A DNA stretch of 64,000 nucleotides from an uncultured Thermoleophilia bacterium (GTDB lineage Bacteria > Actinomycetota > Thermoleophilia > UBA2241), in NCBI GenBank assembly GCA_963814545.1, contig CAWFDC010000014.1, positions 201,387 to 265,386 on the forward strand, in the 5' to 3' direction. Positions within the stretch are counted from its first letter, which is position 1. The number at the start of each line of letters is the position of its first letter. A model generated the notes under the pieces. That model saw only the letters and a list, made by a program, of their open reading frames with translations. It had not been told where the DNA came from and did no database searches. Of this stretch, positions 3,417 to 50,428 are shown piece after piece. The translations under genes were made by a program, and so were the position numbers.

Positions 3417-3428
3417 GGAGTACGCGCT

Positions 3429-8101: not shown

Positions 8102-8178
<77 letters not shown>

Positions 8179-17815: not shown

Positions 17816-17865
17816 CGCCGGCGGGTCCGCCGCCGCGACCCGACTCTACGCGGCGCTGGGCCGAG

Positions 17866-19768: not shown

Positions 19769-19769
19769 G

Positions 19770-23590: not shown

Positions 23591-23710
23591 GGACGGTCTC
23601 TGTCTGTCGTTGTCAGGTCGGCGGCGCGTCGCGGCGGCGATGCCGGCTGCGCTCTCGCCGCCGGGGCGACGACGCGTGGCGCGTCGCCCGGGCGACGTCG
23701 GCCGCGGCGA

Positions 23711-30426: not shown

Positions 30427-30471
30427 GCGGGCACCGCCTCCTTCGCGGCCCTGGCGTCGTCGCCGGCGTGG

Positions 30472-30915: not shown

Positions 30916-30940
30916 TCGTGTTCTCCTCCTCACGCCGGCC

Positions 30941-32919: not shown

Positions 32920-32939
32920 TCTCGCTCCCTCCTCGCCGC

Positions 32940-34403: not shown

Positions 34404-34548
34404 TCTCCTCTCCAGTTCCGCAGAGACTGGGCACGTGATGAGTTCGATGCCGCACCCCGGGCCCTCGACCGGCTGGCCCGGCGGAGACACCGCAAAGGCT
34501 TCGGCGCAGACCAGAATCGACCGCTGCGCCGGGCGCGCGTCAGGGTGC

Positions 34549-34566
34549 TTGTGAAGAGTGTAGCAA
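34549..34566. promoter_or_regulatory. Rex-operator-like site TTGTGAA-GAGT-GTAGCAA (one perfect, one degenerate half-site) about 146 nt upstream of hdrC
   Basis: Compared by eye with the known Rex consensus TTGTGAA-N4-TTCACAA. The right half matches 4/7. Confidence 0.25.
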
Positions 34567-34718
34567 ATTGCGCCACTTCTCTCACTCCCGAAGCTGCGCC
34601 TCCCCAGCGGCGTGCGCCATCTGTACAAGGCTAGCACCGCGCACACGGCGGCGCGCCTGACGAACTGTACAGAGAGCGGGCCCCCTTCCACCCCTTTCGA
34701 TAAGCCGGGCGGGGGCAC

Positions 34719-34784
34719 GCATCAGGGCTTCTCCCGAGACGCATCGGGAGTTCTCCCGGCAGGCATCGGGAGGCTCCCGGACGC
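34719..34784. repeat. three tandem ~22-bp units, each carrying the palindrome CGGGAG-nn-CTCCCG
   Basis: gcatcagggcttctcccgagac / gcatcgggagttctcccggcag / gcatcgggaggctcccggacgc, followed by a fourth half-site (gtcgggag). Lies in the hdrC / tRNA-Thr intergenic region. Confidence 0.7.
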
Positions 34785-34809
34785 GGGGTCGGGAGAGTGC
34801 TTGATGCCG

Positions 34810-34851
34810 GGCGGCGCGGGCGCAAAGCCGCAGCTTTGCGCCCGCGCCGCC
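34810..34851. repeat. 19-bp perfect inverted repeat (hairpin) overlapping the putative tRNA-Thr -35
   Basis: ggcggcgcgggcgcaaagc-cgca-gctttgcgcccgcgccgcc. A TTGCGC-17-TACAAT promoter candidate (34836-34864) lies in and after the right arm. Confidence 0.7.
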
Positions 34852-34884
34852 GGTGACCTACAATCCTCAGCGCTTCACTTCGGA

Positions 34885-34960
34885 GCCGACGTAGCTCAGC
34901 TGGCAGAGCACATCACTCGTAATGATGGGGTCCGGGGTTCGATTCCCCGCGTCGGCTCCA
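34885..34960 (+). tRNA. tRNA-Thr (anticodon CGT), CCA encoded
   Basis: gccgacgtagctcagctggcagagcacatcactCGTaatgatggggtccggggttcgattccccgcgtcggctcca. Confidence 0.9.
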
Positions 34961-35134
34961 GTTCACAGCTCACCCCGCCGCAGATCACGCCGCAAATCAC
35001 GGGTGTTTCGCTCCTCCCCACCCTTGCCAGTGATGCAGGCCTGCCAACACTTGCCAACATCGGGCCTCAGTTCGCCTTCTCCGCGGCGCCCCTGAGGATG
35101 CTCTGAACGTGAGCGGCGATGCCGAACTCACCGC

Positions 35135-35162
35135 TTGTTAGATAGCGGAGATTGAGTAGAAT
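35135..35162 (+). promoter_or_regulatory. candidate sigma70-type promoter for fic (TTGTTA-16-TAGAAT)
   Basis: Lies in the lower-GC stretch upstream of fic. A GATAGC/GCTATC inverted repeat brackets the -10. Confidence 0.45.
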
Positions 35163-35245
35163 GCTATCCAACAAAAGTGGCGATTATCCTCAATAAGGGT
35201 GACGGAATCTCTCCGGATTCTCATTTGTGTTCGGTTGGGAGAGGC

Positions 35246-36409
35246 GTGTCAGAGACTTCTCAGGGCGGCAGAGCCGGTCGATACGTCAGGCAGACAAGCG
35301 GCTACTCGGCCTTCATCCCGCGGCCTCTACCCCCAGCGCCACCCCTCAAGCTGACCGCCCCGCTTCAACATCGTCTCTCTGAGGCAGATCGCATGCTGGG
35401 TCGCCTTGACGGCATCACGCAGATCCTGCCCGATCCCGACCTGTTCGTGGCGATGTACGTGAGGAAAGAGGCGCTGCTCTCGTCTCAGATCGAGGGGACA
35501 CAGGCGACTCTCGTGGACATGCTTGAGTACGAGCTGGCTCCCGCCCGAATGGCACGCGGGGACGCCAAGGAAGCAGTCAACTACGTTGGGGCGCTGAACT
35601 ACGGCCTCGACCGCCTGAAGACCTTCCCAATGTCCTTGCGACTGCTGCGGGAGATCCACGAGCGGCTCCTGACAGATGTGCGTGGAGCCGAGAGAGAGCC
35701 TGGTGAGTTCAGACGTTCGCAGAACTGGATCGGCCCGGAAGGGTGCGGTCTCAACGAGGCCACCTACGTTCCCCCGCCGGTTCCAGAGATGAAGGAGGCC
35801 TTGGGCGACCTCGAGATGTTCCTCCACTCGGACAAGCCGATGCCCCCGCTCTTGAAATGTGGCCTCGTGCACTCACAGTTCGAGACGATCCACCCCTTCC
35901 TTGACGGCAACGGGCGTATGGGTCGATTGCTGATCACGTTCCTGCTCTGTCAACAAGGCGTCCTGCACCGGCCCCTTCTCTACCTCAGCTACTACTTCAA
36001 GAGGCGGCGTCTTGAGTACTACGACCGGCTCCAAGCCGTTCGCGATGTCGGAGACTGGGAGGGCTGGATCGAGTTCTTCCTGAAGGGTGTCATCGACGTG
36101 GCCGCACAGGCCATCGACACCACGCGTCGGGTTCTCGAGTTGCATGAGCGAGACCGCGCCTTGTTGCAGACGAAGACAAGGTCCGCCAATGCTCTGATCC
36201 TCCTCGATCGGCTCTACCACCGTCCTCTCGTCTCCGTCAACGAGGTTGCTTCCTCCCTCCACATCACCTTCAACGGAGCGAGCAGGATCGTGAGTCAGTT
36301 CGAGAGCTTGGGCTTGCTCAGAGAGATAACGGGAGCCGAGCGAGGGCGCATTTTCGTTAACGACCCATACATTCAGCTGCTGCGCGAGGGCACGGACCCG
36401 TCGTCGTAG
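35246..36409 (+). CDS. fic: Fic/DOC family protein (class II, auto-inhibited) with C-terminal winged-helix domain
   Basis: Active-site HPFLDGNGRMGRLL. N-terminal inhibitory-helix motif SSQIEG ([ST]xxxE[GN]). GYSAFIPRPLPP start region. A GTG at 35246 is preceded by GGGAGAGG; the longest ORF starts at 35177. Confidence 0.85.
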   Translation: MSETSQGGRAGRYVRQTSGYSAFIPRPLPPAPPLKLTAPLQHRLSEADRMLGRLDGITQILPDPDLFVAMYVRKEALLSSQIEGTQATLVDMLEYELAPARMARGDAKEAVNYVGALNYGLDRLKTFPMSLRLLREIHERLLTDVRGAEREPGEFRRSQNWIGPEGCGLNEATYVPPPVPEMKEALGDLEMFLHSDKPMPPLLKCGLVHSQFETIHPFLDGNGRMGRLLITFLLCQQGVLHRPLLYLSYYFKRRRLEYYDRLQAVRDVGDWEGWIEFFLKGVIDVAAQAIDTTRRVLELHERDRALLQTKTRSANALILLDRLYHRPLVSVNEVASSLHITFNGASRIVSQFESLGLLREITGAERGRIFVNDPYIQLLREGTDPSS

Positions 36410-36571
36410 GCGTCGCGGGACCCACGAACTCGTCGGGACGAGCAGGGTGTGTGATGACCAAGGGTGTCCGTCACGGTTCCCGGCCGGCTGGCCGATGCCC
36501 CGGAACGCGCGACGAGGGCTCGCGCGTCACACAGGAGCGACGCCGCCGCACTCGATCGCCGGCTTGGCTCC

Positions 36572-37654
36572 TCAGACCTCGGACGACTTGACGCCGACCT
36601 GCTGCGGATGGCCCGCGCCGGTGGCGTAGGTATCCTCAAAGACCTCCCTTAGGACCGGGCTCTCACGGAGGGTGTTGAGGGCGATCGCGGCGTGGTCCTT
36701 CGTGTAGCCGTTGCCGATGATCATCGTCGTGTCGGCACCGACGCCCTCGGCGCCCAGGGCGGCGGCCGTGAAGCTCGTCGCCATGGAGAAGAAGTAGACC
36801 GTCCCGTCGTCTTTGGTCGCGAGGATCGACGACAGCTCGGTACCGGGCACGTTCACGCAGTTGATCGTCAGGTCGGCCATCCGGCCGCCTGTCGCCCTCT
36901 CCACCTCCTCGCGCACGAAGAGCTGGTCGGTGGCCGAGCCGCAGATGATGTGATCGACGAGGTCGGCCCTCTCGAGCCGCCTGCGGCCGGCCTCGTCGAG
37001 CTCGATGCCGATGATCCTCCCCGTGATCCCGACGCGCTTCCGCGCCTCGTGAGCGCAGAGCAGGCCGGCCTTCCCCCCGGCGCCGACGATGAAGACCGTC
37101 TGGCCGGGCTTGACGAGCTTGGCGGTCTGCGCCGGGGCGCCGGCGACGTCGTAGACGGCGAGCGCCAAGCCCCGGTCCATGCCGGCCGGCATGCGCGCGT
37201 ACACCCCCGTCTGGAAGATGATCGCCTGGCCGCGTACCTCGAGCTGGCAGGTGGCCTTGTCGACGGAGACGATCTCGTCGACTCTGAGCGGCGTGAGGGA
37301 GAGCGAGTGGAGGACGGCGACCGGGTCACCGACGTCGACGCCCGGTCGCTCGAACGCCGGCCCTATGGCGGCCACAGAGCCGTAGAGCACGCCGCCCGAT
37401 CCCGTGTCCGGGTTGTGGTGCTTGCCACGCTCCTTGATGATGCCGAGGCTGTGGCGGGCCATCTTCACGACGTCGCCGCCCTCGGCCTCCTCGATCTGGG
37501 TGAAACTCGCCGCGTCGATGTTGAGCGTGTCGACGTCGATGAGGATCTCGTTGTCGTAGATCTCCATCGTGTTGTCGATCTTCCACGCCGGCTGCGGCAG
37601 CACGCCCTTGGGCTCTATGACCCGGTGGGCGCCGTACCTGTTGCCATGCTTCAT
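36572..37654 (-). CDS. kdd: L-erythro-3,5-diaminohexanoate dehydrogenase (lysine fermentation Kdd)
   Basis: 360 aa. MKHGNRYGAHRVIEPKGVLPQPAWKIDN...LNIDAASFTQIEE...NPDTGSGG...DVAGAPAQ...GAGGKAG...FFSMATSFTAAALGAEGVG...GNGYT matches my recollection of Kdd sequences nearly end to end. Confidence 0.75.
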   Translation of the reverse strand: MKHGNRYGAHRVIEPKGVLPQPAWKIDNTMEIYDNEILIDVDTLNIDAASFTQIEEAEGGDVVKMARHSLGIIKERGKHHNPDTGSGGVLYGSVAAIGPAFERPGVDVGDPVAVLHSLSLTPLRVDEIVSVDKATCQLEVRGQAIIFQTGVYARMPAGMDRGLALAVYDVAGAPAQTAKLVKPGQTVFIVGAGGKAGLLCAHEARKRVGITGRIIGIELDEAGRRRLERADLVDHIICGSATDQLFVREEVERATGGRMADLTINCVNVPGTELSSILATKDDGTVYFFSMATSFTAAALGAEGVGADTTMIIGNGYTKDHAAIALNTLRESPVLREVFEDTYATGAGHPQQVGVKSSEV

Positions 37655-37827
37655 GAGTGTCGCCCCTCCGGCCTCCTCCGGCGCCAGCGAGGGTCGCGGG
37701 CGCCGTCGGTCGGCGTGCTTCACACCATACCCCCGCCGTTGTCCGAGATCGGCCTGGCCGGCGACGCCGGACCTGCCCCTCCCGGACGTGCCGCTCCGCA
37801 GCCTCCCGGCGAGGGGCAGGCGTGGCG

Positions 37828-38508
37828 TCACTGCAGCCGCACCACGCCCTTGCGGATCGCGTACTTGACGAGGTCGGTCACGTCGTGCAGCTGGAGCTTG
37901 CGCATGATGTTGCCGCGGTGGCTCTCGACCGTCTTCCTGCTCAGCCCCAGGATGTCGGCGATGTCCTGGTTGGTGTTGCCCTCGGCGATCAGGCGCAGCA
38001 CCTCCCGCTCCCTCGGCGTGAGCACGCCGCCCGCGTCGGGGCGGGCGTCGCCGCGGGCGAGGCGGCGGTAGTCGTCGATGAGCTTGGCGGCGATCGGCGG
38101 GTAGAGGAAGGACGCGCCGCTGTGCACGGTGCGGATCGCCTGCACGAGGTCCTCGGTCGCCACGCGCTTGAGCACGTAGCCCGAGGCGCCCGCCTCGATG
38201 ACCTGCTGCACGTAGGCGTCGTCGTCGTACATGCTGAGGATCAGGATCTTGACGCCCGGCCAGCGGCGCTTGATCTCGCGCGTGGCCTCGAGGCCGTTCA
38301 TGCGCGGCATCACCATGTCCATGATGACGACGTCGACCGCGGCCTCGGCGAGCAACTCGAGGGCCTCGGCCCCGTCGCTCGCCTCGCCGACCACCTCGAT
38401 GTCGCTCTGCAGGGCGAGCAGCGAGCACACCCCCTCGCGCAGGATCGTGTGATCGTCGGCGACGATGACCCGTATCGGCCCCGCGCCCGTCGCCTCACCG
38501 TCAGTCAT
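37828..38508 (-). CDS. NarL/FixJ-family response regulator (REC + LuxR HTH)
   Basis: Intact 226 aa with VIVADDH, DVVIMDMVMP (phospho-Asp) and LTPREREVLRLIAEGNTNQDIA. Overlaps the kinase gene by 8 nt. Confidence 0.9.
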   Translation of the reverse strand: MTDGEATGAGPIRVIVADDHTILREGVCSLLALQSDIEVVGEASDGAEALELLAEAAVDVVIMDMVMPRMNGLEATREIKRRWPGVKILILSMYDDDAYVQQVIEAGASGYVLKRVATEDLVQAIRTVHSGASFLYPPIAAKLIDDYRRLARGDARPDAGGVLTPREREVLRLIAEGNTNQDIADILGLSRKTVESHRGNIMRKLQLHDVTDLVKYAIRKGVVRLQ

Positions 38509-39523
38509 GTTCTTCCTCCCTCAAGGGCACCACGACGTAGACGTGGGTGCCGCCGTCGTGGCTCGAGACGATGTTCACCGTACCCCCGAGCAGCTCGGCC
38601 CGCTCGCGGATCGACAGCAGACCGAGACCGTAGCGCTCGCCCGGGTCGGCGAGCACCTCGTCGGGGTCGAAGCCGACCCCGTCGTCGTGCACCGCGAAGC
38701 TCGCGTACCCGGGCTGGATCTCCAGGTGCACGGAGACGCGCGTGGCGCCGGCGTGCTTGATGACGTTGGCGAGCGACTCCTGGGCGATGCGGTAGAGGGC
38801 CGTCTCCGTCTCGGCCGCGATGCGCTCGCCGGCGCCTTCGAAGTCCACCTCGACGATGAGCTCGGAGCCGCCGAGGTGGGACTGGATGTACCAGCGGAGC
38901 GCCGGGAGGAGGCCGAGGTCGTCGAGCATCGCCGGGCGCAGGTCGTAGATCAGCAGCTTGAGCTGCTCCATCGTGTGCCTGATGAGCTCCTTCGAGGTGG
39001 CGACGCGGTCCCTGACGTCGACCGGGCAGTCGCCGAGGCCCTTCTCGACGAGGTCGAGGTTGATGAGCGTCGCCGCCAGCGTCTGACTCGTCTCGTCGTG
39101 GAGCTCGCGGCCGATGCGGCGCCGCTCGTCCTCGATCGAGGTCAGCAGGCGCGAGGAGTAGCGGCGCGCCTCGTACTCGAGGCGCTCGACCGTCTCCGTG
39201 AGCGCGGCGGACACGGTCGAGAGGGCGGGGTCTATCTGTCCGCCTTCGGTCGCGAGGTGAGGGTCGATCCCCTTGTGGATCGCTTCGACGATGCGGCTCA
39301 TGTCGAGGAGCGGGCGCAGTGTGGTGCGTACGAGCACGTAGTTGACCAGGACGGCCACGGCGAGGCCCGCGACGGCCACCGTCGCGGCGACCGTCCCCGA
39401 AGGCACCTCGGGCCACAGACGGCCGGCGAGCACCCCGCCGACGGCCACGACGGCGGCGACGACGGCGTTGGCCGCCAGCAGCCGGCCGACGGCCGGATGG
39501 CTGGTCAGTCTCCTCGCGGTCAT
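38501..39523 (-). CDS. sensor histidine kinase (HisKA_3 / NarX-DesK type), two N-terminal TM segments
   Basis: ELHDETSQTL H-box and NVIKHAGA...DDGVGF...YGL ATPase motifs. The start chosen is MTARRL with GGAAAGGA upstream; the longest ORF extends to 39640. Confidence 0.85.
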   Translation of the reverse strand: MTARRLTSHPAVGRLLAANAVVAAVVAVGGVLAGRLWPEVPSGTVAATVAVAGLAVAVLVNYVLVRTTLRPLLDMSRIVEAIHKGIDPHLATEGGQIDPALSTVSAALTETVERLEYEARRYSSRLLTSIEDERRRIGRELHDETSQTLAATLINLDLVEKGLGDCPVDVRDRVATSKELIRHTMEQLKLLIYDLRPAMLDDLGLLPALRWYIQSHLGGSELIVEVDFEGAGERIAAETETALYRIAQESLANVIKHAGATRVSVHLEIQPGYASFAVHDDGVGFDPDEVLADPGERYGLGLLSIRERAELLGGTVNIVSSHDGGTHVYVVVPLREEEHD

Positions 39524-39705
39524 CGGCGGGCAGTCCTTTCCGGCCGACCGCTCGCGGTCGGCCCCCGCGGGACGCTGCCGTGCTCGGCGCGTGCGGGACG
39601 TGCCGTGGTGAACGTTAGCCCATACCGCCGCCGGGCGCACGCGTGGCCGGCGCGCGCGCAGGCGGGCGCGGCGGGCTCACAGGCCGATCCGGCCACTCAG
39701 TAGAA

Positions 39706-39874: not shown

Positions 39875-41684
39875 ATGAGGATCGGCGTCTACCTTTGCGA
39901 GGAGGAGGCGGCCGCCACGAAGGCCGTCGACCTCCACTCCATCTTCAACTACGCGAACAACCTCCCCGGGGTGGAGCACGTGGGGGTCTTCGGCGAGCAA
40001 CCGAGGCTCCTGCCCGACGTCCTCGCGGCGGAGATCAAGCGGCACCGGCTCGACCGGGTGGTGATCGCCGGCCATTCCCCGGGCTTCTTCAAGCCGGCCT
40101 TCACCCGCGCGATGGCGACCGTCGGCGGCGACCCCACCGAGGTCAGGCTCGCATCGTTCAGGGAGCACGGTGCGGCCGGCGGCGCGGCCACCGCCCGCGC
40201 CAAGTCCATCCTGGCCTGCGCCGTGCTCGGCGTGCCCTACGCCCTGGCCGCGACGCCCGACTCCACGCCGGTCCACCCCACGACGGTCGTGGTGGGCGGC
40301 GGCGTGGCCGGCATCCAGGCCGCCCTCGAGATCGCCGACGCCGACAAGCAGGTGGTGCTGGTCGAGAAGATGGGCACCATCGGCGGCCACATGGCGATGT
40401 TCGACAAGACCTTCCCCACGCTCGACTGCGCCGCCTGCATCCTGACGCCCAAGATGGTGGCCGTCGGGCAGCACGAGATGATCGACCTGATGACCTACTC
40501 CGAGGTCGAGAAGATCGAGGGCACGCCCGGCGCCTACACGGTGACGATCCGCAAGAAGGCGCGCCGCGTCGACGTCGACGCCTGCGTCGTCTGCCACGCC
40601 TGCGCCGACGCCTGCCCGGTCAAGGTGCCGAGCGAGTTCGACGTCGGCATCGCGCTGCGCAAGTCCGTCTACATGCCGTTCCCGCAGGCCGTGCCCAACG
40701 CCTACCTCATCGACGAGGCGAGCTGCCTGTACGTGCAGAGCGACGGCAAGCGCTGCGGCAACTGCGCCAAGAAGTGCCCCAAGGAGTGCATCGACCTCGA
40801 CGCCAAGGACGAACTGGTCGAGGTCGCCGTCGGCAGCATCATCCTGGCGACCGGCTACGACATCTACGACGCCGCCAAGGTCGAGCGCTACGGCTACGGC
40901 GTGCTGCCCAACGTCATGACGGCGCTCGAGTTCGAGCGCCTCACCAACGCGTCGGGCCCCACCGGCGGCAAGATCGTCACCAAGACCAAGCAGTTCAACA
41001 AGAAGACCAAGACCGACGAGTGGGTCGTCGACCCCGAGGGGCCCGCGCCCACGATCGGTCGCCATCATCCACTGCGTCGGCTCGCGCGACGCCCAGCACA
41101 ACCAGTACTGCTCGCGCGTCTGCTGCATGTACTCGCTCAAGTTCGCCCACCTGGTGCGCGAGAAGCTGCCCGACGCCGAGTGCTACGAGTTCTACATCGA
41201 CATGCGCGCCTTCGGTAAGGGCTACGAGGAGTTCGCCGAGCGCATCAAGGCCGAGGGCACCTCGGTGATCCGCGGCCGCACGGCCCGCATCACCGAGGTC
41301 GACGGCCAGATGATCATCAAGGGCGAGGACATCCTCACCGAGCGCGTGATCGAGCACCCGGTCGACATCGTGCTGCTCGCCGTCGGCCTCGTCCCCGCGG
41401 CCGGCAACGCCCATCTCGCCGAGATGCTCGGCATCGAGCGCGACGACGACGGCTGGTTCAGCGAGCTCGACTACAACTCCGACCCGACCGACACCGAGCG
41501 CGGCGGCGTGTACGTCGCCGGCGCCTGCCAGGCCCCGAAGGACATCCCCGACACCGTCGCGCAGGCCTCGGCGGTCGCGGCCGGCGTGCTCAAGGCCATC
41601 GTCAGCGGCAAGGGTGTCGACAGCCACGCCACGCTGTCGCTCGAGCAGATCGAAGCCCGCGCCCGTAACCTCGTCGAGGTCTAA
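39875..41684 (+). CDS. HdrA-like FAD/FeS flavoprotein, QmoA-like variant (degenerate N-terminal domain, no C-terminal ferredoxins), frame-disrupted near 41055
   Basis: MRIGVYLCEEE replaces the CxCG Cys motif. Also VVVGGGVAGIQAAL, FPTLDCAACILTPKM, inserted ferredoxin CVVCHACADACP and CGNCAKKCPKEC, CSRVCCMYS, GACQAPKDIPDTVAQA. The protein ends about 40 aa after that. ORF 39830 continues in ORF 41127..41684. Confidence 0.8.
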
Positions 41685-41694
41685 GGAGGTCTTC

Positions 41695-42891
41695 ATGGCG
41701 ATCCGCGCCAACCCCAAGCTGATCGACGAGCTCGAGCGCTACGGAGCGGAGGACGTCTCCAAGTGCTACCACTGCGGCAACTGCTCCGCCGCCTGCCCGT
41801 TCTCGAAGGAGCCCTACACGTTCCCGCGGCACTCGATGCGCGCCCTGCAGATGGGGCTCGAGGAGAAGCTCGAAGGCGAGCTCGAGCCCTGGCTCTGCTA
41901 CTACTGCGGCGAGTGCAGCACCGAGTGCCCGCGCGACGCCGAGCCCGGCGAGACCATGATGAGCCTGCGGCGCTGGCTCACCGCGCGCTACGACTGGACC
42001 GGCATCTCCGGCCTCTTCTACCGGTCGTGGAAGGCCGAGCTGTTCGCGATCCTCCTCGTCGCCCTGCTCACCGGCGTCGGGTTCCTCGCCGCCGGCTACA
42101 TGATCGGCGGCGGCGACATCTCCATCTACGACGGCGAAGGCGCCTTCCTGCCGGCCGGCGAGAGCTGGTACGGCCTGCCGGCCAGCGGCGGCGTCCACCT
42201 CTTCGACTGGATCCTCGCCGGCGTCCTCGTCTTCTTCCTCGGCACCAACGCGATGCGCATGTGGTGGAAGACGATGGGCAGGGACAAGAGCCTCGACGTC
42301 TCCGCCGGCATGTACCTCAAGAAGGTCTACCTGCTGCCGGTGCACTTCTTCACCCAGAAGCGCTACGCCGAGTGCGAGCACAAACGGCCCTGGGTGGTGC
42401 ACCTCGTCCTCATGCTGAGCTACGTGACGATGCTGGTGCTCATCATGTTCTTCCTCGAGCGCATGGCGGCGGGCCCCGAGATCGACTGGCGGGTGCACGT
42501 CTTCGGCCTGCTGGCGACGGTCGGCCTCATCGGCACGACGGTCTTCGCCCTCCGCGGCCGCGTCAAGAAGTCGGAGACGCACTACCAGCACTCGCACGAG
42601 TCCGACTGGATGTTCCTGATCCTGCTCGTGATCGTCGCTTCGACGGGCTTCCTGCAGTACGCCCTGCACCGCTCCGGGTACGACGCGGCGGCCAACATCG
42701 CCTACGTCGTGCACCTCATGGCGGTCGTGCCGATGCTGGCCCTCGAGGTGCCGTTCAGCAAGTGGTCGCACCTCGCGTACCGACCGCTCGCCATGTACTT
42801 CGCCGACGTCCGCGCCGAGCCCGCGCTCGCCGCCATGCGTGAGCGCCAACTGGGCGACCTGCCGGCGACGGGCGCGTCGCAGGCCGCGTGA
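41695..42891 (+). CDS. QmoC-like fusion: 2x[4Fe-4S] HdrC-like domain + His-rich multi-TM cytochrome-b/NarI/HdrE-like membrane domain
   Basis: Intact 398 aa with AAGGAGG RBS. CYHCGNCSAACP and CYYCGECSTECP are followed by about 6 hydrophobic segments with conserved-looking His residues (HLFDW, VHFF, VVHLVLML, RVHVFG, VVHLMAV). Confidence 0.7.
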   Translation: MAIRANPKLIDELERYGAEDVSKCYHCGNCSAACPFSKEPYTFPRHSMRALQMGLEEKLEGELEPWLCYYCGECSTECPRDAEPGETMMSLRRWLTARYDWTGISGLFYRSWKAELFAILLVALLTGVGFLAAGYMIGGGDISIYDGEGAFLPAGESWYGLPASGGVHLFDWILAGVLVFFLGTNAMRMWWKTMGRDKSLDVSAGMYLKKVYLLPVHFFTQKRYAECEHKRPWVVHLVLMLSYVTMLVLIMFFLERMAAGPEIDWRVHVFGLLATVGLIGTTVFALRGRVKKSETHYQHSHESDWMFLILLVIVASTGFLQYALHRSGYDAAANIAYVVHLMAVVPMLALEVPFSKWSHLAYRPLAMYFADVRAEPALAAMRERQLGDLPATGASQAA

Positions 42892-42902
42892 GGGAGATCA
42901 GC

Positions 42903-44631
42903 ATGGACGAACCCAAGATCGGCTTCTACATCTGCAACTGCGGCACCAACATCGCCAAGATGGTCGACTGCGACGCGGTCGCCGAGGCGGCGAGCCACCT
43001 GCCGGGCGTGGCGGTCGCCAAGTCCTACAAGTACATGTGCTCCAACCCGGGCCAGGAGATGATCATCCAGGACGCGAAGGAGCAGGGGCTCGACCGCGTC
43101 GTGGTGGCGGCCTGCAGCCCGCGGATGCACGAGCCCACCTTCCGCAAGGCGCTCGCCACCGCGGGCGTCAACCAGTACTTCCTCGAGATGGCCAACATCC
43201 GCGAGCAGTGCAGCTGGGTCCACGACGACCGCGAGGCGGCCACCGAGAAGGCCAAGGCGCTCGCGTTCGGCGCCGTCAGGCGCGTCGCCTACCACGAGCC
43301 GCTCGAGCGCCGCTCGGTCGACATGTGCGCCAGCACGCTCGTCATCGGCGGCGGCATCGCCGGGCTGACCGCGGCCCTCGAGCTCGCCGACGCCGGCACC
43401 CAGGTGTACCTGGTCGAGCGCGAGGACCACCTGGGCGGCAACATCGCCCGCGTCGACCTCACGGCGCCGTACCTCGACTCGGCCCGCGACATGCTGAGCG
43501 AGCGCGTCACCCGGGTGCTCGAGCACCCCGACATCGAGGTGCTGCTCGACTCCGAGGTCGAGAGCATCGAGGGCTACGTCGGCAACTTCACCGCCAAGGT
43601 CTCCGGCAAGGCGGCGGGCAACGGCGACGTCGCGACGCACGAGATCGACGTCGGCAGCGTCATCGTGAGCACCGGCTACCAGGAGTTCGACGCCTCGCGC
43701 ATCACGCACTACGGCTACGGCAAGCTGCCCAACGTGATCACCTCGTTCGAGTTCGAGAAGATGCTGCGCCGCGGGCGAGATCGAGACCAAGGAGGGCAAA
43801 GTCCCCCAGTACGTGGCGATCGTGCACTGCGTCGGCAGCCGCAGCAAGGAGTTCCACGCCTACTGCTCGCGGGTCTGCTGCATGACGGCGCTCAAGTACG
43901 CCCACGAGGTGAAGTCGGCGATCCCCAACTGCTACGTCAGCGACGTCTACATCGACATGCACGCCTTCGGCAAGGGGCACGAGGACTTCTACCGGCGCAG
44001 CTCCGAGGTCAAGACCCTCTTCCTCATGTTCAAGAAGAACGAGCACCCGGTGATGCGCAAGGCCGACCCCAAGGACGACTGCGAGATGCTGATCGAGGTC
44101 AACGAGAAGCTCTCCGGCGAGATCATCGAGATGCCCGCCGACCTCGTCGTCCTCATGGTCGGCATGGAGGCCCAGGCCGACTGCCGCGAGGTGGCCCACC
44201 TGGTCAACATCAGCCACGACAAGGACGGCTGGTTCATCGAGAGCCACCCCAAGCTCGACCCGGTGGCGACGACGACCGACGGCGTCTACATCGCCGGCAC
44301 CTGCCCGGCGCCCAAGGACATCCCCGACACCGTCGCCCAGGCGCGGGCCGCGGCGGCGCGGATCCTCGCCCAGATCTCGCGCGGCAAGATCGAGATCGAC
44401 GCCGTGTTCGCCGAGGTCGACGAGGACCACTGCTCGGGCTGCCGCATCTGCAACGAGCTCTGCCCGTACACCGCCATCGAGTTCGACGCGGAGAAGCACA
44501 AGAGCCACGTGATCAGCGCGCTCTGCAAGGCGTGCGGCGCCTGCGTCGCCGCCTGCCCGTCCGGGGCCATCAAGGCGCGGCACTTCACCGACGAGCAGAT
44601 CTTCGCCCAGATCGAGGGGGTGCTGGCATGA
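42903..44631 (+). CDS. hdrA: HdrA paralog (QmoB-core-like: N-terminal Cys domain and C-terminal ferredoxins kept, inserted ferredoxin missing), frame-disrupted near 43775
   Basis: KIGFYICNCGTNI...AACSPRMHE, VIGGGIAGLTAAL, HCVGSR...CSRVCCM, GTCPAPKDIPDTVAQA, CSGCRICNELCP and CKACGACVAACP. ORF 42888 continues in ORF 43813..44631. Confidence 0.85.
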
Positions 44632-45062
44632 GCTTCGAGCCGAAGATCGTCGGCTTCCTCTGCAACTGGTGCTCGTACACGGGCGCCGACCTCGCCGGCA
44701 CGAGCCGCATCCAGTACGCGCCCAACGTGCGTGTGATCCGCGTGATGTGCTCGGCGCGCATCGACCCGACGTTCGTGATCCGCGCCCTCGAAGAAGGCGC
44801 CGACGGGGTGCTCATCTGCGGCTGCCACCCGGGTGACTGCCACTACTCCGAGGGCAACTACAAGGTGATGCGGCGCTTCCCGCTGCTCAAGAAGCTGCTC
44901 GCGGAGTACGGCATCGAGAACGACCGCGTGCGGCTCGAGTGGGTCAGCGCCAGCGAGGGGCAGCGCTTCGCCGACATCGTCAACGACATGACCGAGCGGG
45001 TCCGCGAGCTCGGGCCCAGCAAGATCCGGCCGGCCCTGCAGGCCGACGCGGCGGAGAGGTGA
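44628..45062 (+). CDS. mvhD: MvhD family protein, copy 2
   Basis: MSFEPKIVGFLCNWCSYTGADLAG...ICGCHPGDCHY, 144 aa. The ATG overlaps the hdrA stop (ATGA). Confidence 0.88.
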   Translation: MSFEPKIVGFLCNWCSYTGADLAGTSRIQYAPNVRVIRVMCSARIDPTFVIRALEEGADGVLICGCHPGDCHYSEGNYKVMRRFPLLKKLLAEYGIENDRVRLEWVSASEGQRFADIVNDMTERVRELGPSKIRPALQADAAER

Positions 45063-45064
45063 CT

Positions 45065-46042
45065 GTGGCCGAGAAGCTGCAGATCGCGATGTACTGGGGC
45101 GCCGCCTGCGGCGGCTGCGACGTCTCGGTGCTCGACACCAACGAGTTCATCCTCGACATCGCCGCCGCCTGCGACATCCGCTTCTGGCCGATCGCCGTCG
45201 ACGGCAAGTACTCCGACCTCGAGGCGATGGACGACGGCGAGCTCGACGTCTCGTTCTTCAACGGCGCCGTGCGCAACAGCGAGAACGAGCACGTCGCCAA
45301 GCTCCTGCGCCAGAAGAGCAAGCTCATGGTGGCCTTCGGCTCGTGCGCCCACCTCGGCGGCATCCCGGGGCTCGCCAACCTCGCCACGAAGGGCGAGATC
45401 TTCGACCGCGCCTACCTGCACAACCCGTCGATCCAGAGCGGCAACGAGACGGTGCCGCAGCCGGAGAGCACCGACGACGGCTACGAGCTCGAGATCCCCG
45501 TGTTCTACGACCGGGTCTACAAGCTCGACGACGTGGTCGACGTCGACTACTACCTCCCCGGCTGCCCGCCGGCGCCGACCCAGGTCAAGGCCGTCGTGCA
45601 GGTGCTGGTGGCGGTGCTCACCGGCCAGGCCGAGGCGCCGCCCAACGGCGCCGTGGTCGGCGCCTCCGAGGTGGCCGTCTGCGAGGACTGCCCGCGCACG
45701 CGCGAGGAGAAGAAGATCACCAAGTTCTACCGTCCCTGGCAGATCATCCAGGACCCCGAGCGCTGCCTGCTCGAGCAGGGCATCCTCTGCGCCGGCATCG
45801 TCACGCGCTCCGGCTGCGGGGTGCGCTGCCCCAACACCAACATGCCCTGCCGGGGCTGCTACGGTCCGCTGCCCAACGTGACCGACCAGGGGGCCAAGTT
45901 CGTCAGCGCCCTGGGCTCGATCATCGACAGCAAGGACCCGGAGGAGATCGAGCAGATCATCGCCGACGTCCCCGACATCGCCGGCCTGAGCTACCGCTTC
46001 GGACTGCCGGCCTCCCTGCTCCAGAGGAAGGTCACGCCATGA
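45065..46042 (+). CDS. mvhG: [NiFe]-hydrogenase small subunit MvhG-like, copy 2 (intact)
   Basis: VAEKLQIAMYWGAACGGCDVSVLD, FGSCAHLGGIPG, YYLPGCPP, GCGVRCPNTNMPCRGCYGP. A GTG at 45065 aligns with the copy-1 N-terminus; an in-frame GTG at 45059 is also possible. Confidence 0.88.
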   Translation: MAEKLQIAMYWGAACGGCDVSVLDTNEFILDIAAACDIRFWPIAVDGKYSDLEAMDDGELDVSFFNGAVRNSENEHVAKLLRQKSKLMVAFGSCAHLGGIPGLANLATKGEIFDRAYLHNPSIQSGNETVPQPESTDDGYELEIPVFYDRVYKLDDVVDVDYYLPGCPPAPTQVKAVVQVLVAVLTGQAEAPPNGAVVGASEVAVCEDCPRTREEKKITKFYRPWQIIQDPERCLLEQGILCAGIVTRSGCGVRCPNTNMPCRGCYGPLPNVTDQGAKFVSALGSIIDSKDPEEIEQIIADVPDIAGLSYRFGLPASLLQRKVTP

Positions 46043-47505
46043 CCCGACGCATCAGCATCGACCCCATCACCCGGCTCGAGGGCCACGGCAAGATCGAGAT
46101 CTTCCTCGACGACGACGGGGCGGTCGAGGACTGTCACTTCCAGATCCCCGAGCTGCGCGGCTTCGAGCGCTTCGTCGAGGGCCGCCCGATCGAGGAGCTG
46201 CCGCGCATCGTGACCCGCATCTGCGGCGTCTGCCCGGCGAGCCACCACATGGCCAGCGCCAAGGCGGTCGACGGCTGCTTCGGCAACGAGTGCCCGGAGC
46301 TGGCCCACAAGCTGCGCGACATGTACTACAACGCGCACTACATCCACAGCCACATCGCCCACTTCTACGCCCTGGCCGCCCCCGACTTCGTCTGCGGCCC
46401 CGACAGCGACCCCGCGATGCGCAACATCCTCGGCGTGGTCGACAAGGTCGGGCTCGAGATCGGCGGCGCGGTCATCAAGGCGCGGGCGATGGCGCAGGAG
46501 ATCCAGATGCTCCTCGGCGGGCGCTTCACCCACCTTGTGTGGTGCCTGCCGGGCGGCGTCGCCAAGGGCTGCTCCGAGGAGGAGCTCGAGAAGATCAAGC
46601 CCATGGTCGCCGAGCTCTACGACTTCACGCAGTTCTCGCTGCAGCTCTTCCGCGACGTCGTGCTCGCCAACGAGGGCTACGTCGACCTCATCGTCAACGG
46701 CCCGTACACGCTCGACGTGCACAACATGGGCCTGGTCGACGAGAACAACAAGGTCAACTTCTACGACGGCAAGGTACGCGTCGTCGACTACGAGGGCAAC
46801 GAGATCGTCAAGTACGCGCCCAACGAGTACATGAACGTGGTCGCCGAGCACGTCGAGCCGTGGTCCTACCTCAAGTTCCCGTACCTCAAGGAACGCGGCT
46901 GGAAGGGCTTCGTCGAAGGCATCGACACGAGCCTCTACTGCGCCACGCCGCTCTCGCGCCTCAACGTCGCCGACGGCATGGCGACGCCCAAGGCGCAGGA
47001 GGCCTGCGACGAGATGTTCACGACCCTCGGCGGCAAGCCGGTCAAGGCGCAGCTCGCCCAGCACTGGGCGCGCCTCGTCGAGATGGTGCAGAACGCCGAG
47101 ACCCTGCAGATGTACTGCGACGACCCGGAGATCACCGGCGACGGCTACCGGGTCGTCCCCCAGCAGATCACCGGCGAGGGCGTCGGCATCGTCGAGGCCA
47201 TGCGCGGCACCCTGACCCACCACTACACCTGCGACGAGAACGGCATGTGCACGAGCGCCAACCTCATCGTCGGCACGACCAACAACAACGCCCCCATCCA
47301 CATGATGACGAAGAGGGTCGCCAGCACCCTGATCAAGCCCGGCGTCGAGCCCGACCAGGGCATCCTCAACATGGTGGAGATGGCGTTCAGGGCCTTCGAC
47401 CCGTGCTACAGCTGCGCCACGCACAGCCTGCCCGGCGAGATGCCCCTCGAGGTGCAGATCATCAAGGGCGGCAAGCCGTATCGCGAGTTCAGGCGTAACT
47501 GCTAG
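46039..47505 (+). CDS. mvhA: [NiFe]-hydrogenase large subunit MvhA-like (group 3c-like), copy 2 (intact)
   Basis: 488 aa with RLEGHGKIEIF, RICGVCPASHH and C-terminal DPCYSCATH plus extension. The ATG overlaps the mvhG stop. Confidence 0.92.
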   Translation: MTRRISIDPITRLEGHGKIEIFLDDDGAVEDCHFQIPELRGFERFVEGRPIEELPRIVTRICGVCPASHHMASAKAVDGCFGNECPELAHKLRDMYYNAHYIHSHIAHFYALAAPDFVCGPDSDPAMRNILGVVDKVGLEIGGAVIKARAMAQEIQMLLGGRFTHLVWCLPGGVAKGCSEEELEKIKPMVAELYDFTQFSLQLFRDVVLANEGYVDLIVNGPYTLDVHNMGLVDENNKVNFYDGKVRVVDYEGNEIVKYAPNEYMNVVAEHVEPWSYLKFPYLKERGWKGFVEGIDTSLYCATPLSRLNVADGMATPKAQEACDEMFTTLGGKPVKAQLAQHWARLVEMVQNAETLQMYCDDPEITGDGYRVVPQQITGEGVGIVEAMRGTLTHHYTCDENGMCTSANLIVGTTNNNAPIHMMTKRVASTLIKPGVEPDQGILNMVEMAFRAFDPCYSCATHSLPGEMPLEVQIIKGGKPYREFRRNC

Positions 47506-47517
47506 CGGCCGCCGCGG

Positions 47518-48099
47518 ATGAGCGACGCAACGCAGGCGAGCGGTGAGAAGGGCGGCGATGTCAAGACGCTGCTCATCGGCATGGGCAACCCGATCGTCAC
47601 GGACGACGCCGTGGGGATCCTGCTGGCGCGCGAGGCGGGCGCGGCCCTCGGGCCGCGCCCCGGCCTCGACGTCATCGACGAGTGCTGCATCGGGGGCCTC
47701 AACCTGCTCGACCTCGTCGCCGGCTACGACCGCCTCGTGGTGCTCGACTCGATCAAGACCCGCGACGGCGTGCCCGGCACCTGGTACCGCTTCGACGCCA
47801 CCGACCTGCGCGAGACGATGAACCTGCGCAACGTGCACGACGCCAACTTCGCGACGGCGATGGCCCTCGGCCGCTCGGTGGGCATGCACCTGCCCGACGA
47901 CGCCGACGTGCACATCCTCGCCGTCGAGATCGACGACAACATCAACTTCGGCGAGCAGCTCAGCCCGCCGCTGGCGGCCGCCTACGACGAGCTGCGCGAC
48001 GAGATCCTCGCCGAGGTGCGCCGGGTGCTCGACGGCGAGGCGGCGAGCGAGGCCGTCGGCGACGAGCCCGCGACCGCAAGGAGCGCGACATGGAGATGA
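47518..48099 (+). CDS. hydrogenase maturation endopeptidase, copy 2 (intact)
   Basis: LLIGMGNPIVTDDAVG, VVLDS, HDANF. 193 aa. Confidence 0.85.
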   Translation: MSDATQASGEKGGDVKTLLIGMGNPIVTDDAVGILLAREAGAALGPRPGLDVIDECCIGGLNLLDLVAGYDRLVVLDSIKTRDGVPGTWYRFDATDLRETMNLRNVHDANFATAMALGRSVGMHLPDDADVHILAVEIDDNINFGEQLSPPLAAAYDELRDEILAEVRRVLDGEAASEAVGDEPATARSATWR

Positions 48100-48296
48100 T
48101 CAAGCTCGACTGCCCCTCGTGCGGGCGGACGAACCAGCCGCTGACCCAGACCGAGGAGCAGCTGCAGTACCGCTGCGGCGCCTGCGGGATGGTGTACTAC
48201 GGACCGGCCAAGTGCGCCGACGACCTCAAGCCGACCGACGTGCCCGACACGCCGGTCGAGGGCGGCGGCGACTGGGACACGGCTCCGCCGAAGTAA
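48090..48296 (+). CDS. 68-aa 4-Cys zinc-ribbon protein
   Basis: MEMIKLDCPSCGRTNQPL...LQYRCGACGMVYYG. Overlaps the endopeptidase stop by 10 nt. The Cys spacing and flanks resemble the C-terminus of the 26557..27519 protein. Confidence 0.55.
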   Translation: MEMIKLDCPSCGRTNQPLTQTEEQLQYRCGACGMVYYGPAKCADDLKPTDVPDTPVEGGGDWDTAPPK

Positions 48297-48349: not shown

Positions 48350-48367
48350 CACGCGCCGGTGACGCGG

Positions 48368-50428
48368 ATGCGCTCACTCCACAGCCCTCGCGACGGGTCC
48401 ACGACCCTGCCCGACGGGGGCACGATCGCCGTCGTGGGTGGCGGGCCGGCGGCGGCCTTCTTCAGCATCCAGGCGCTGAGAGGGGCGCGTGAGCGCGGCA
48501 AGGACGTCCGGCTCCTCGTCTTCGAGCGCAAGATGGAGGTCTCCGGCGACGGTTGCCCGGCCGACACCGCCTGGAAGGGCTGCAACCACTGTGCCGGCGG
48601 CATCTCCCCTCGTCTGACCGACTCCCTGAAGGAGCACGGGCTCGAGCTGCCCGAAGGCGTGATCCAGGGGCGGACGAGCCACATCACCGTGCACGGGGAC
48701 TGGAAGAGCATCGAGCTCCCCGTGCCGCCAGGCAGGGAGATGCTCAGCGTGTTCCGCGGGTCACGCCCCGAGCGGCGCCCGGACGCGCATCTGAACCTCG
48801 ACTCCTTCCTGCTCGAGCGCGCCGCTGAAGAGGGCGTACACGTCGTCGACGCCGAGGTCTGCGGCATCCGCTGCTCCAGTAACGGCAGACCCGTGATCTC
48901 GTACCGCCGCCCGGGCTCGAGCGAGACGCGCGACGAGACCGTCGAGGCGGATCTCGCCGTGTTCGCGGCGGGCGTCAACCGCGCGACGGACATGGAGGTG
49001 GCCGCGGACCCGCTGCTGACCGCGCTGGCCGACGTGCTCCCCGGCTTCCGCCCGCCGCGCGTGCGCAAGGCCTTCATCGTCGAGATGGAGACCGAGGAGG
49101 AGCTCAGCGACGCCATGCGCGGCGAGATGCACTTCGTCCCCTACGGCTCGAAGGGCCTGCGCATCGAGCTTGCGTCCCTGATCCCGAAGGGGAGATGGAC
49201 GACCGTGGTCCTGCTCGGCAAGAGCATCGACAGGGCGCCGCTCTCGCAGTACCTGGAGGTCGTGGAGCGCTTCCTCGACCTCCCGCACATCAAGCGCGCC
49301 CTCCCCCGGCGCGCCGGGTTCCACCCCGTCTGCGTGTGCCACCCGAACATGACGGTCGGGGCGGCGCGCAACGGCGTCGGCGAGCGCCTCGCCGTCATCG
49401 GCGACCTCGCCGTCTCGCGCCTCTACAAGGACGGCCTGTACTCGGCCTTCCTCACCTCCTCGGCGCTCGCCGAGTGCGTGCTCGAGCGCGGCATCGACCG
49501 CCGCAGCCTCGAGCTCGGCTACTGGCCCGCGGTCACGCGCGTCGACCGCGACAACCGCTCGGGGCACGCGGTCTTCGCCCTGACGCACGTCGTCTTCTCG
49601 CGCCCGATGCTCAGCCGCGTCGTCTACCAGGCCGTGCTGACCGAGCGCCGCAACCAGCCCGAGGAGTCGCGCCGGCTCGGCGACGTGCTGTGGCGCATCG
49701 CCAGCGGCGACGACAGCTACGCACGCTGCCTCGCCGGCATGTTCCGCCCCGTGGCGGTCTGGCGCGTCGTCGTCGGCGGGGCCCTGGTCACGGCGAGGAA
49801 CTGGGTGACCGAGAAGGTCTTCGGGCTGAGCTGGAAGGGCATCGGGCGCTACCAGACGGGCGTCTCCCGGCAGAACGTCGAGAAGCGGCGGGCCGACCTC
49901 ATCTCCACGCTCGGCTACCGGCCGTTCGGCGAGCAGCCGCAGATGGAGAGCATGTTCTCGATCCGCATCCGCAGCGGAGGCGCGGCGATCCTCCGCCAGC
50001 TCGAGAAGTTCGGCGACGAGGCGCGCGAGTACTTCACGCCGCGCCTGATCCGCGTGCGACGGACGGCCGGAGCGCCGACCGACGTGGGCACCACGATCCG
50101 CTACAACGTGACCCCGCCCTGGTACTCGTTCTCGGTCGCCCTCGAGAGGATCGTGCCGGGGCACTGCCTGCTGTACCGGGCGCTCGACGGCTTCCCGCGC
50201 GACGGCATCCTGGCCTTCGACGTCGCGGGCGAGGGACCGGCCCGGAGCCTCCTGACGATCTACCTGGCCTTCGACTTCCCCAAGCCGAGGAACCCCTTCA
50301 AGCGGGCCGCCTGGTGGCTCTTCCGCCTCACCTTCCCCGGGTTCGTGCACGACGTGCTCTGGAACCACGCCCTCTGCAAGCTCAAGTATCTCGTCGAGAG
50401 GGCGGAAGCTGAGGCCGAGGACGACTGA
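48368..50428 (+). CDS. FAD-dependent oxidoreductase (geranylgeranyl-reductase-like) fused to a C-terminal SRPBCC/START-like domain
   Basis: Intact 686 aa. IAVVGGGPAAAF dinucleotide motif and KGCNHCAGGI. The C-terminal ~160 aa (FSIRIRSGG...YNVTPPWYSFSVALERI...LTIYLAFDF...) looks like a lipid/ligand-binding SRPBCC fold. Both domain calls are by eye. Confidence 0.5.
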   Translation: MRSLHSPRDGSTTLPDGGTIAVVGGGPAAAFFSIQALRGARERGKDVRLLVFERKMEVSGDGCPADTAWKGCNHCAGGISPRLTDSLKEHGLELPEGVIQGRTSHITVHGDWKSIELPVPPGREMLSVFRGSRPERRPDAHLNLDSFLLERAAEEGVHVVDAEVCGIRCSSNGRPVISYRRPGSSETRDETVEADLAVFAAGVNRATDMEVAADPLLTALADVLPGFRPPRVRKAFIVEMETEEELSDAMRGEMHFVPYGSKGLRIELASLIPKGRWTTVVLLGKSIDRAPLSQYLEVVERFLDLPHIKRALPRRAGFHPVCVCHPNMTVGAARNGVGERLAVIGDLAVSRLYKDGLYSAFLTSSALAECVLERGIDRRSLELGYWPAVTRVDRDNRSGHAVFALTHVVFSRPMLSRVVYQAVLTERRNQPEESRRLGDVLWRIASGDDSYARCLAGMFRPVAVWRVVVGGALVTARNWVTEKVFGLSWKGIGRYQTGVSRQNVEKRRADLISTLGYRPFGEQPQMESMFSIRIRSGGAAILRQLEKFGDEAREYFTPRLIRVRRTAGAPTDVGTTIRYNVTPPWYSFSVALERIVPGHCLLYRALDGFPRDGILAFDVAGEGPARSLLTIYLAFDFPKPRNPFKRAAWWLFRLTFPGFVHDVLWNHALCKLKYLVERAEAEAEDD

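Follow-up and report, generated by a model that had tools for sequence, protein, structure and literature searches.

A hydrogenase operon with a Qmo-like membrane module in a Thermoleophilia bacterium: a candidate H2-oxidising, menaquinone-reducing and possibly bifurcating complex with relatives across bacterial phyla

Analysis of a stretch of 64,000 nucleotides (nt) of contig CAWFDC010000014.1 from an uncultured Thermoleophilia bacterium (the whole stretch is referred to as the window) revealed an operon at positions 39875-48296 in which genes for an Mvh-type [NiFe] hydrogenase are joined to genes for a Qmo-like membrane module. We propose that this operon encodes a membrane-anchored complex of Mvh-Qmo type, an H2:menaquinone oxidoreductase that also reduces ferredoxin by flavin-based electron bifurcation, and we give this reading as a whole about an even chance of being right. 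Taken in parts, the complex probably passes electrons from H2 to a membrane quinone, and perhaps also to ferredoxin. The proposal builds on the observed subunit identities, domain contents, conserved ligand residues and synteny, and on the absence of HdrB and AprBA. The operon consists of eight co-directional genes, in which neighbours either overlap by 4-10 nt or leave 10-12 nt between them:

39875-41684 (+), hdrA1: HdrA-type flavoprotein, QmoA counterpart; 602 amino acids (aa) after removal of a 1-nt insertion
41695-42891 (+), qmoC-like: HdrC-like 2x[4Fe-4S] domain fused to a six-helix membrane domain; 398 aa
42903 (or GTG at 42888)-44631 (+), hdrA2: HdrA-type flavoprotein, QmoB core; 575 aa after removal of an extra G
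44628-45062 (+), mvhD: [2Fe-2S] connector subunit; PF02662, E 8e-57
about 45059-46042 (+), mvhG: [NiFe]-hydrogenase small subunit; PF01058; position conserved in relatives
46039-47505 (+), mvhA: [NiFe]-hydrogenase large subunit, Mvh/group-3c type by sequence; PF00374
47518-48099 (+), hycI-like: HycI/FrhD-type hydrogenase maturation endopeptidase; PF01750
48090-48296 (+), zinc-ribbon open reading frame (ORF): 68 aa; weak zinc-ribbon Pfam matches below cut-offs

All eight tightly packed genes had been recognised in an earlier note made from the sequence of the window, and its domain assignments agree with the Pfam matches listed, with the HdrA models and with the NCBIfam qmoC model. The start codon of mvhD overlaps the stop codon of hdrA2 (ATGA), and overlapping start and stop codons link the operon genes, a point in favour of the proposed complex. 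No CCG (HdrB) domain was found by Pfam in 39875-48296, nor in the same operon of relatives, which agrees with one half of the earlier claim that the operon has neither HdrB nor HdrC; the other half is not quite accurate, since the QmoC-like protein has an HdrC-like domain at its N-terminus. Chance falls far short of accounting for the arrangement, which recurs in dozens of genomes. The HycI-like protease gene lies 3′ of mvhA in most loci of the same gene order (type I, listed below). The zinc-ribbon ORF is 94% identical in the closest relative, L001, and absent or unconvincing in the other related loci, which makes its membership of the system doubtful. A promoter scan of the operon found no sigma-70 sites, and terminator-like matches in it stayed at chance level.

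The fusion protein encoded by the second gene is judged to be a true QmoC homologue over its whole length, given its match to the NCBIfam model NF038018 (qmoC; residues 8-369 against model positions 4-360 of 360, E 4.7e-55) and its 41-58% identity to QmoC from the six qmoA-qmoB-qmoC loci that encode AprBA. Both ferredoxin motifs reported in the earlier note, CYHCGNCSAACP and CYYCGECSTECP, are present upstream of six predicted transmembrane (TM) helices, as described there, and the N-terminal HdrC-like domain contains two CxxCxxCxxxCP motifs. Eight Fe-S cysteines and five histidines (His217, His236, His301, His340 and His359) are invariant among 15 Mvh-linked and Apr-linked sequences; His168, His268 and His325 are conserved in the close subfamily only. 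A lack of conserved haem-ligand histidines had been named in advance as a finding that would refute the reading in the earlier note, and these five residues are invariant. The membrane domain probably binds two b-type haems. An AlphaFold2 (AF2) model of the protein has six TM helices (mean predicted local distance difference test score, pLDDT, 70.7; membrane part mostly 70-94). Lys/Arg counts in the loops, combined with the AF2 helices, predict an N-in topology that puts the N- and C-termini as well as the Fe-S domain on the cytoplasmic side. Pfam recognises only the HdrC-like N-terminus, which was also the only part matched in a sequence search of the PDB, where no solved QmoC was found. An exact look-up of the QmoC-like protein gave no match on record in public assemblies.

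The two HdrA-type flavoproteins show complementary domain losses. HdrA1 aligns to residues 5-563 of M. wolfeii HdrA. It comprises an N-terminal domain without cluster cysteines, a flavin adenine dinucleotide (FAD) domain with a CxGSRD...CSxxCC cluster and an inserted ferredoxin domain with both clusters, and it lacks the C-terminal ferredoxin domain. HdrA2 aligns to residues 9-245 and 326-653 of the same protein. Its N-terminal domain does contain the cluster cysteines and is accompanied by an FAD domain and, at the C-terminus, a 2x[4Fe-4S] ferredoxin domain; the inserted one is missing. Against methanogen HdrA the two proteins score 455-529 bits, a closer relationship than that between HdrA1 and QmoA (239 bits). 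QmoA from an aprBA locus is 34% identical to HdrA1 over residues 136-577 and has a degenerate second cluster in its inserted domain. QmoB of locus L078, a single ORF of 744 aa, aligns to HdrA2 residues 3-572 plus MvhD residues 4-134, and MvhD is 33% identical to the C-terminus of QmoB. By these alignments we take HdrA1 as the QmoA counterpart and HdrA2 together with MvhD as a split QmoB, so the system is a Qmo homologue with the hydrogenase attached to the MvhD part. The earlier note had likewise called the two flavoproteins QmoA-like and QmoB-core-like, and needs correction in one respect: HdrA1 is larger than QmoA, with a cluster-less N-terminal domain and a complete two-cluster inserted domain. 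The length of the HdrA1 gene is conserved across phyla.

In solved Hdr complexes HdrA's N- and C-terminal domains make up a mobile donor arm with MvhD or a homologue of it, the low-potential electron is carried by cluster HA3 to HA5′/HA6′ in the inserted domain of the partner, which is the exit point, and cluster HA4′ supplies the high-potential branch (PMC12350162). Considering these domain roles together with the complementary losses, we infer that a heterodimer of HdrA1 and HdrA2 would keep exactly one complete bifurcation path of the HdrA type.

The hydrogenase is assigned by homology to the Mvh/group-3c-like enzymes, as first proposed. MvhA matches the VhuA model (E 3.7e-112) and carries the motifs RICGVCPASH and DPCYSCATH as well as a C-terminal extension for proteolytic maturation; its best solved relatives are the MvhA chains 9sw2_F (E 1e-114) and 5odc_F (E 1e-112). 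MvhD matches the VhuD and HdrA2 C-terminal models. The MvhA proteins of type I loci in other phyla are 74-82% identical to that of the operon, and MvhA of the type found in the neighbouring Hdr cluster of the window (a paralogue) is 57-60% identical to it.

Gene arrangement and homology suggest that the products form one complex, that this complex binds haem and uses quinone as an acceptor, and that electrons leave H2 along two bifurcating branches. H2 would be oxidised in the cytoplasm by MvhAG, from which electrons would travel via MvhD and the HdrA2 arm to a flavin. The high-potential electron would then pass over an HdrA [4Fe-4S] cluster and the HdrC-like clusters of the QmoC-like subunit to the b-haems and menaquinone, and the low-potential electron would reach ferredoxin via the inserted ferredoxin domain, which only HdrA1 retains. 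The net reaction would be 2 H2 + menaquinone + 2 oxidised ferredoxin → menaquinol + 2 reduced ferredoxin, with quinone replacing heterodisulfide in flavin-based bifurcation. Both functions considered in the earlier note, a simple H2:quinone link and bifurcation with quinone as the high-potential acceptor, would fit the evidence, and two papers have put them forward for this architecture in Archaeoglobi. We favour bifurcation because two full HdrA flavoproteins and the low-potential exit domain are kept and because, from standard potentials, the span between H2 and menaquinone is large enough to drive ferredoxin reduction.

Several points weigh against this proposal. The match of the QmoC-like protein to the qmoC model scores 187.5 bits, below the NCBI equivalog cut-off of 300 bits, so the protein is regarded as a member of the family and not called an equivalog of Apr-linked QmoC. 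Pfam, including NarI/HdrE (PF02665), gave no match to the membrane domain at E up to 0.01; of the families that had been suggested for 41695-42891, QmoC was recovered with the NCBIfam model and NarI/HdrE was not with Pfam. A Foldseek comparison of the AF2 model with the PDB returned nothing significant, NarI chains being the best among the weak matches (E 0.36-0.58, probability up to 0.85, TM-score up to 0.41). Of the histidines that are universally conserved, only one in five is positioned toward the outer face of the membrane, and the haem ligand pairs are not assignable with certainty. The same domain complementarity occurs in canonical QmoA/QmoB, where bifurcation or confurcation is itself unproven. 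For every member of this architecture the function has been read from sequence, and co-transcription and physical assembly from gene arrangement. Finally, electron transfer from H2 to menaquinone is strongly exergonic and would run uncoupled.

A plain, non-bifurcating cytoplasmic H2:menaquinone oxidoreductase, in which every electron from MvhAG would travel via MvhD, HdrA and the QmoC-like subunit into the quinone pool and the inserted domain of HdrA1 is just an internal wire or a relic, would need the same subunit set and membrane anchor and would draw on just this favourable reaction, known from standard potentials. It would also parallel canonical QmoA, whose inserted domain is no more than degenerate and which is not known to reduce ferredoxin. 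We nevertheless consider it unlikely: a wire would have no need of two full HdrA-type flavoproteins, the inserted domain of HdrA1 (the known low-potential exit) keeps both of its clusters in a protein of conserved length, and a span of ~340 mV would go unconserved unless there were other coupling.

Flavin-based bifurcating enzymes are reversible in principle, and the complex could work mainly in reverse, evolving H2 by confurcation from menaquinol and reduced ferredoxin as a sink in fermentation, hypoxia or low-H2 syntrophy. The HydG, HydF and HydE maturases encoded in the window point to a fermentative, H2-cycling lifestyle, many hosts of related clusters are fermentative Bacteroidales, and confurcation was proposed for Qmo by Ramos et al. 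in 2012 (PMC3333476). This direction is, however, thermodynamically possible at very low H2 only, characterised Mvh-type hydrogenases are H2 oxidisers, and the sole expression data were interpreted by their authors as H2 uptake (PMC10945360); we therefore hold predominantly reverse operation to be more doubtful still.

Relatives of the bifurcating complex proposed here are widespread in bacteria. A search of 5.8 billion proteins returned more than 2,500 relatives, the closest named ones from metagenome-assembled genomes (MAGs) of Actinobacteria and Thermoleophilia, and among GTDB species representatives a relative of the QmoC-like protein was encoded in 593 of the 600 pattern matches listed. 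We surveyed 84 related loci by tblastn, taking the window proteins as queries and correcting by hand where contigs end. The hdrA1-qmoC-hdrA2 core adjoins mvhDGA in 53 of them, in two gene orders and in many bacterial phyla, so the neighbourhood singled out in the earlier note is a recurrent one. The following layouts were distinguished, the loci outside them being cut by contig ends:

Type I, hdrA1-qmoC-hdrA2-mvhD-mvhG-mvhA(-hycI): 35 loci; Thermoleophilia/Actinomycetota, Acidobacteriota, Latescibacterota, Aminicenantes, Chrysiogenia, Holophagae and some Bacteroidales
Type II, mvhDGA-hdrA1-qmoC-hdrA2: 18 loci; Bacteroidales, Cytophagales
Type III, core that lacks an adjacent hydrogenase and in most cases has an MvhD homologue ~3-5 kb upstream: 8 loci; e.g. 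Acidobacteriota, Geobacteraceae
Canonical, Apr-linked qmoA-qmoB-qmoC: 6 loci; Myxococcota, Desulfobacteraceae
Actinobacterial variant, MvhD, 897-aa flavoprotein fusion, HdrA and QmoC: 6 loci; Actinomycetes and other Actinomycetota (including Thermoleophilia/Gaiellales)

AprB and AprA were found by tblastn in exactly the six qmoA-qmoB-qmoC loci, with Sat in four of these within the fetched flank. The same search detected neither Sat nor AprBA, whether in the 64 kb of the window or in the 10 kb around each of the 53 Mvh-linked loci, and the classical role of Qmo in adenosine 5′-phosphosulfate (APS) reduction, for which sat/aprAB had been suggested as the telltale genes, is therefore rejected for the window locus. 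A different cytoplasmic partner encoded elsewhere (sulfur, DsrC or a thiol acceptor), reduced through hdrA1-qmoC-hdrA2 with H2 and quinol as co-donors, would suit the homology to QmoABC, whose QmoA docks AprAB, the fact that only 64 kb of the genome is in view, and a rough neighbour-joining tree of QmoC (indicative only) that places Apr-linked sequences among Mvh-linked ones and so implies that the membrane subunit has changed partners; set against the missing Sat and AprBA, the lack of any other conserved acceptor gene alongside the cluster across phyla, and the lack of Sat, AprAB and DsrAB in the Archaeoglobi that possess the cluster (bioRxiv 10.1101/2022.12.01.518715; PMC10945360), it appears quite improbable.

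In other loci the same core is paired with MvhD-linked donor modules that are not hydrogenases, which fits a modular acceptor unit. Type III loci without an adjacent hydrogenase (L016, L019, L021, L034, L042 and L043) have MvhD ~3-5 kb upstream of hdrA1. Pfam scans of three of them showed Fe-S proteins encoded after the upstream MvhD in each case, and two of the three (L021 and L043) also have a PF17179 (Fer4_22) protein. The resemblance of these upstream genes to the FlxBCD part of Flx-Hdr suggests a different electron donor. In L021 a HycI-like protease gene lies directly 3′ of hdrA2 despite the lack of an adjacent hydrogenase. The actinobacterial variant (L020, L022, L024, L025, L030 and L038; QmoC homologue 59-64% identical) has neither hydrogenase nor aprBA. 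Its 897-aa fusion, scanned in L020 only, contains Fer4_20 and Pyr_redox_2 domains, and the variant could represent a form of this membrane module that is linked to NAD(P)H.

Single Bacteroidales MAGs can carry two divergent clusters of Mvh-Qmo type, one per gene order: RA.bin97 (L055 and L075) and binchicken_co22_40 (L060 and L076), with QmoC proteins ~53% and ~41% identical to the window protein. Locus L051 has a further, distant QmoC/HdrA set on the opposite strand (14383-18703).

Considered jointly, these results may describe a widespread bacterial class of H2-driven, bifurcating menaquinone/ferredoxin reductases with an asymmetric HdrA heterodimer that has a single path, in which hdrA1-qmoC-hdrA2 is a general membrane acceptor for MvhD-linked donors (hydrogenase or NAD(P)H-type) and an evolutionary bridge from soluble Mvh-Hdr to Qmo; we rate this broader picture at somewhat less than an even chance. 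Should the proposed reaction hold, anaerobes would have a further route from H2 to low-potential ferredoxin, with the respiratory quinone pool and not heterodisulfide as the sink, and many bacterial group-3c hydrogenases labelled ‘Hdr-linked’ by default in metagenomic surveys would gain a concrete function. The hosts of the clusters are soil and sediment Actinomycetota, Acidobacteriota, Bacteroidota, Latescibacterota, Aminicenantes, Chrysiogenia and others.

The architecture itself has already been noted in two archaea (Archaeoglobi), with the same hypothesis. A 2022 preprint on Ca. Methanoglobus nevadensis described a cluster that encodes [NiFe] hydrogenase subunits along with two homologues of HdrA and a fusion of QmoC with HdrC, and its authors speculated that electrons flow between H2, ferredoxin and menaquinone (bioRxiv 10.1101/2022.12.01.518715). 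Lynes et al. (2024) found the ‘Mvh-Qmo-Hdr’ cluster of Ca. M. hypatiae to be highly expressed (995-2431 reads per kilobase per million, RPKM) and hypothesised H2-driven bifurcation to menaquinone and ferredoxin (PMC10945360). The earlier note had reckoned with the chance that this exact synteny was already annotated as a known complex: a description and a name have indeed been published for it, though only as a hypothesis and not for a complex that has been characterised. Matched to the published description, the archaeal cluster and the window operon share MvhA/G/D, a pair of HdrA homologues and a fusion of QmoC/HdrC type that includes a cytochrome b domain. HdrB and AprAB are missing from both, and the same function has been proposed for both. 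The Archaeoglobi hosts are thermophilic, methanogenic archaea, whereas the host of the window is an Actinomycetota-like bacterium with 70% G+C. Unlike the archaeal cluster as described, the window operon has back-to-back neighbours, namely a complete mvhDGA-hdrABC paralogue and a two-component system. The operon is thus a bacterial member of a kind of system that has been noticed, is expressed in Archaeoglobi and is biochemically uncharacterised. No description of a bacterial cluster of this type was found in the literature searched, which left out most subscription journals. New here are the breadth of the bacterial distribution, the conservation of two gene orders, the homology of each subunit to QmoABC together with the complementary loss of HdrA domains, and evidence for pairing of the same core with other MvhD-linked donors; neither the bacterial distribution nor the HdrA domain complementarity features in the Archaeoglobi papers.

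All three subunits of QmoABC have homologues in the operon, and the ferredoxin domains are distributed over the two flavoproteins in the same way. The gene order differs (A-B-C in Qmo, A-C-B in the window, i.e. hdrA1-qmoC-hdrA2-mvhD), and QmoB is a single HdrA-like protein with a fused MvhD-like C-terminus, whereas HdrA2 and MvhD are encoded separately in the window. The window system is linked to a [NiFe] hydrogenase and canonical QmoABC to aprBA/sat. Ramos et al. (2012) suggested from the similarity of QmoB to HdrA and MvhD that it may have a third partner, e.g. a hydrogenase (PMC3333476). In the window, the counterpart of its MvhD-like domain is a free-standing MvhD, encoded directly upstream of mvhG and mvhA, which bears on the long-standing question of the role of QmoB and this domain in sulfate reducers.

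The solved MvhADG-HdrABC complexes (5ODC, 9SW2) have in common with the predicted complex the hydrogenase module, the MvhD connector and the fold and clusters of the HdrA flavoprotein. The window operon differs from them in having no HdrB and hence no disulfide-reducing site, and its HdrC is only a domain fused to the membrane cytochrome instead of a separate subunit. In place of an HdrA homodimer, a heterodimer of two truncated paralogues is expected, in a complex predicted to be membrane-bound and quinone-linked. PMC10734219 describes EtfABCX/FixABCX as passing electrons from NADH to ferredoxin and menaquinone, a precedent for bifurcation with menaquinone as the high-potential acceptor. These are unrelated proteins, with NADH and not H2 as the donor, and they are membrane-associated without an integral dihaem anchor.

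Both hdrA genes of the operon are frameshifted in the assembly, which the earlier note had missed. Each is a broken ORF owing to a 1-nt insertion, located by DNA alignment to L001 (~90% DNA identity) as an extra base at 41053-41058 in hdrA1 and an extra G within the GGG at 43773-43775 in hdrA2. L001 reads through both sites, its hdrA1 (602 aa) and hdrA2 (575 aa) being intact, and has scattered indels of its own in mvhG, mvhA and hycI. Intact orthologues of HdrA1 (602-615 aa) and HdrA2 (574-575 aa) agree in length with the joined reconstructions from the window. Third-position G+C tracking revealed that the coding frame switches often across the whole window (G+C ~70%), the signature of an indel-rich long-read assembly. 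Frame switches inside obvious genes were seen in HypE, in MvhA, MvhG and HdrA of the neighbouring cluster and in both hdrA genes of the operon, and ORF-based annotation of the contig would fragment genes. Considering the intact relatives, the single-base differences from L001 and this frame switching, the breaks are attributed to assembly errors and not to biology. As both lie just upstream of the CxGSRD motif, selenocysteine and programmed frameshifting were also considered. Both were rejected: the breaks change the frame and are not TGA codons in frame, each amounts to a single extra base relative to intact L001, L001 has scattered indels of its own, and the window is rich in indels.

The surroundings of the operon include a second hydrogenase cluster and a regulatory gene pair:

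28001-34264 (-), cluster 1: mvhA-mvhG-mvhD-hdrA-hdrB-hdrC; Pfam NiFeSe_Hases, Oxidored_q6 and CCG
37831-39676 (-), two-component system: GerE/NarL-type response regulator and HisKA_3 histidine kinase, divergently transcribed

Cluster 1 lies ~6 kb away, has a CCG domain and is the textbook hdrCBA-mvhDGA set that it had been taken for; it is a paralogous context, found also in relatives, and does not belong to the complex. The response regulator and histidine kinase sit between the two diverging hydrogenase operons, a layout kept in relatives L001-L005 (Response_reg/GerE, HisKA_3/HATPase_c), and this two-component system is likely a regulator.

The [NiFe]-hydrogenase maturation genes hypE, hypD, hypC and hypF are located directly beside cluster 1, at 21166-27474 (-), next to a 301-aa ORF (26572-27474) without a family match. 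At 250-5841 (+) there is an [FeFe]-hydrogenase maturation set, composed of hydG (250-1521), hydF (3456-4730) and hydE (5005-5841), with an aspartate ammonia-lyase gene (1980-3407) between hydG and hydF. The hyp genes, the two Mvh operons and hydEFG together make the window a hydrogen-metabolism island.

An ORF of 686 aa (48365-50428, +) begins 68 nt 3′ of the operon. It has an N-terminal FAD/Rossmann-like motif, very weak geranylgeranyl-reductase-like matches and a long C-terminal part without a match, and was found in none of the 84 related loci. Neither this ORF nor the zinc-ribbon ORF is counted as core, since they are not conserved with the cluster.

A stretch of lower G+C (34300-37700; 0.63 vs ~0.70) separates hdrC of cluster 1 from the response regulator and contains tRNA-Thr (34885-34960), a Fic/DOC gene (35408-36319, +) and a zinc-ADH-like ORF (36575-37657, -). 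In relatives hdrC and the response regulator are ~380-470 bp apart, and the stretch looks like an insertion at the tRNA. A weak coding signal was seen at 18.4-21 kb. Further tRNA genes of the window are Pro-CGG, Met-CAT and an adjacent Tyr-GTA/Thr-GGT pair (8102-8178, 19131-19207 and 19684-19845, respectively).

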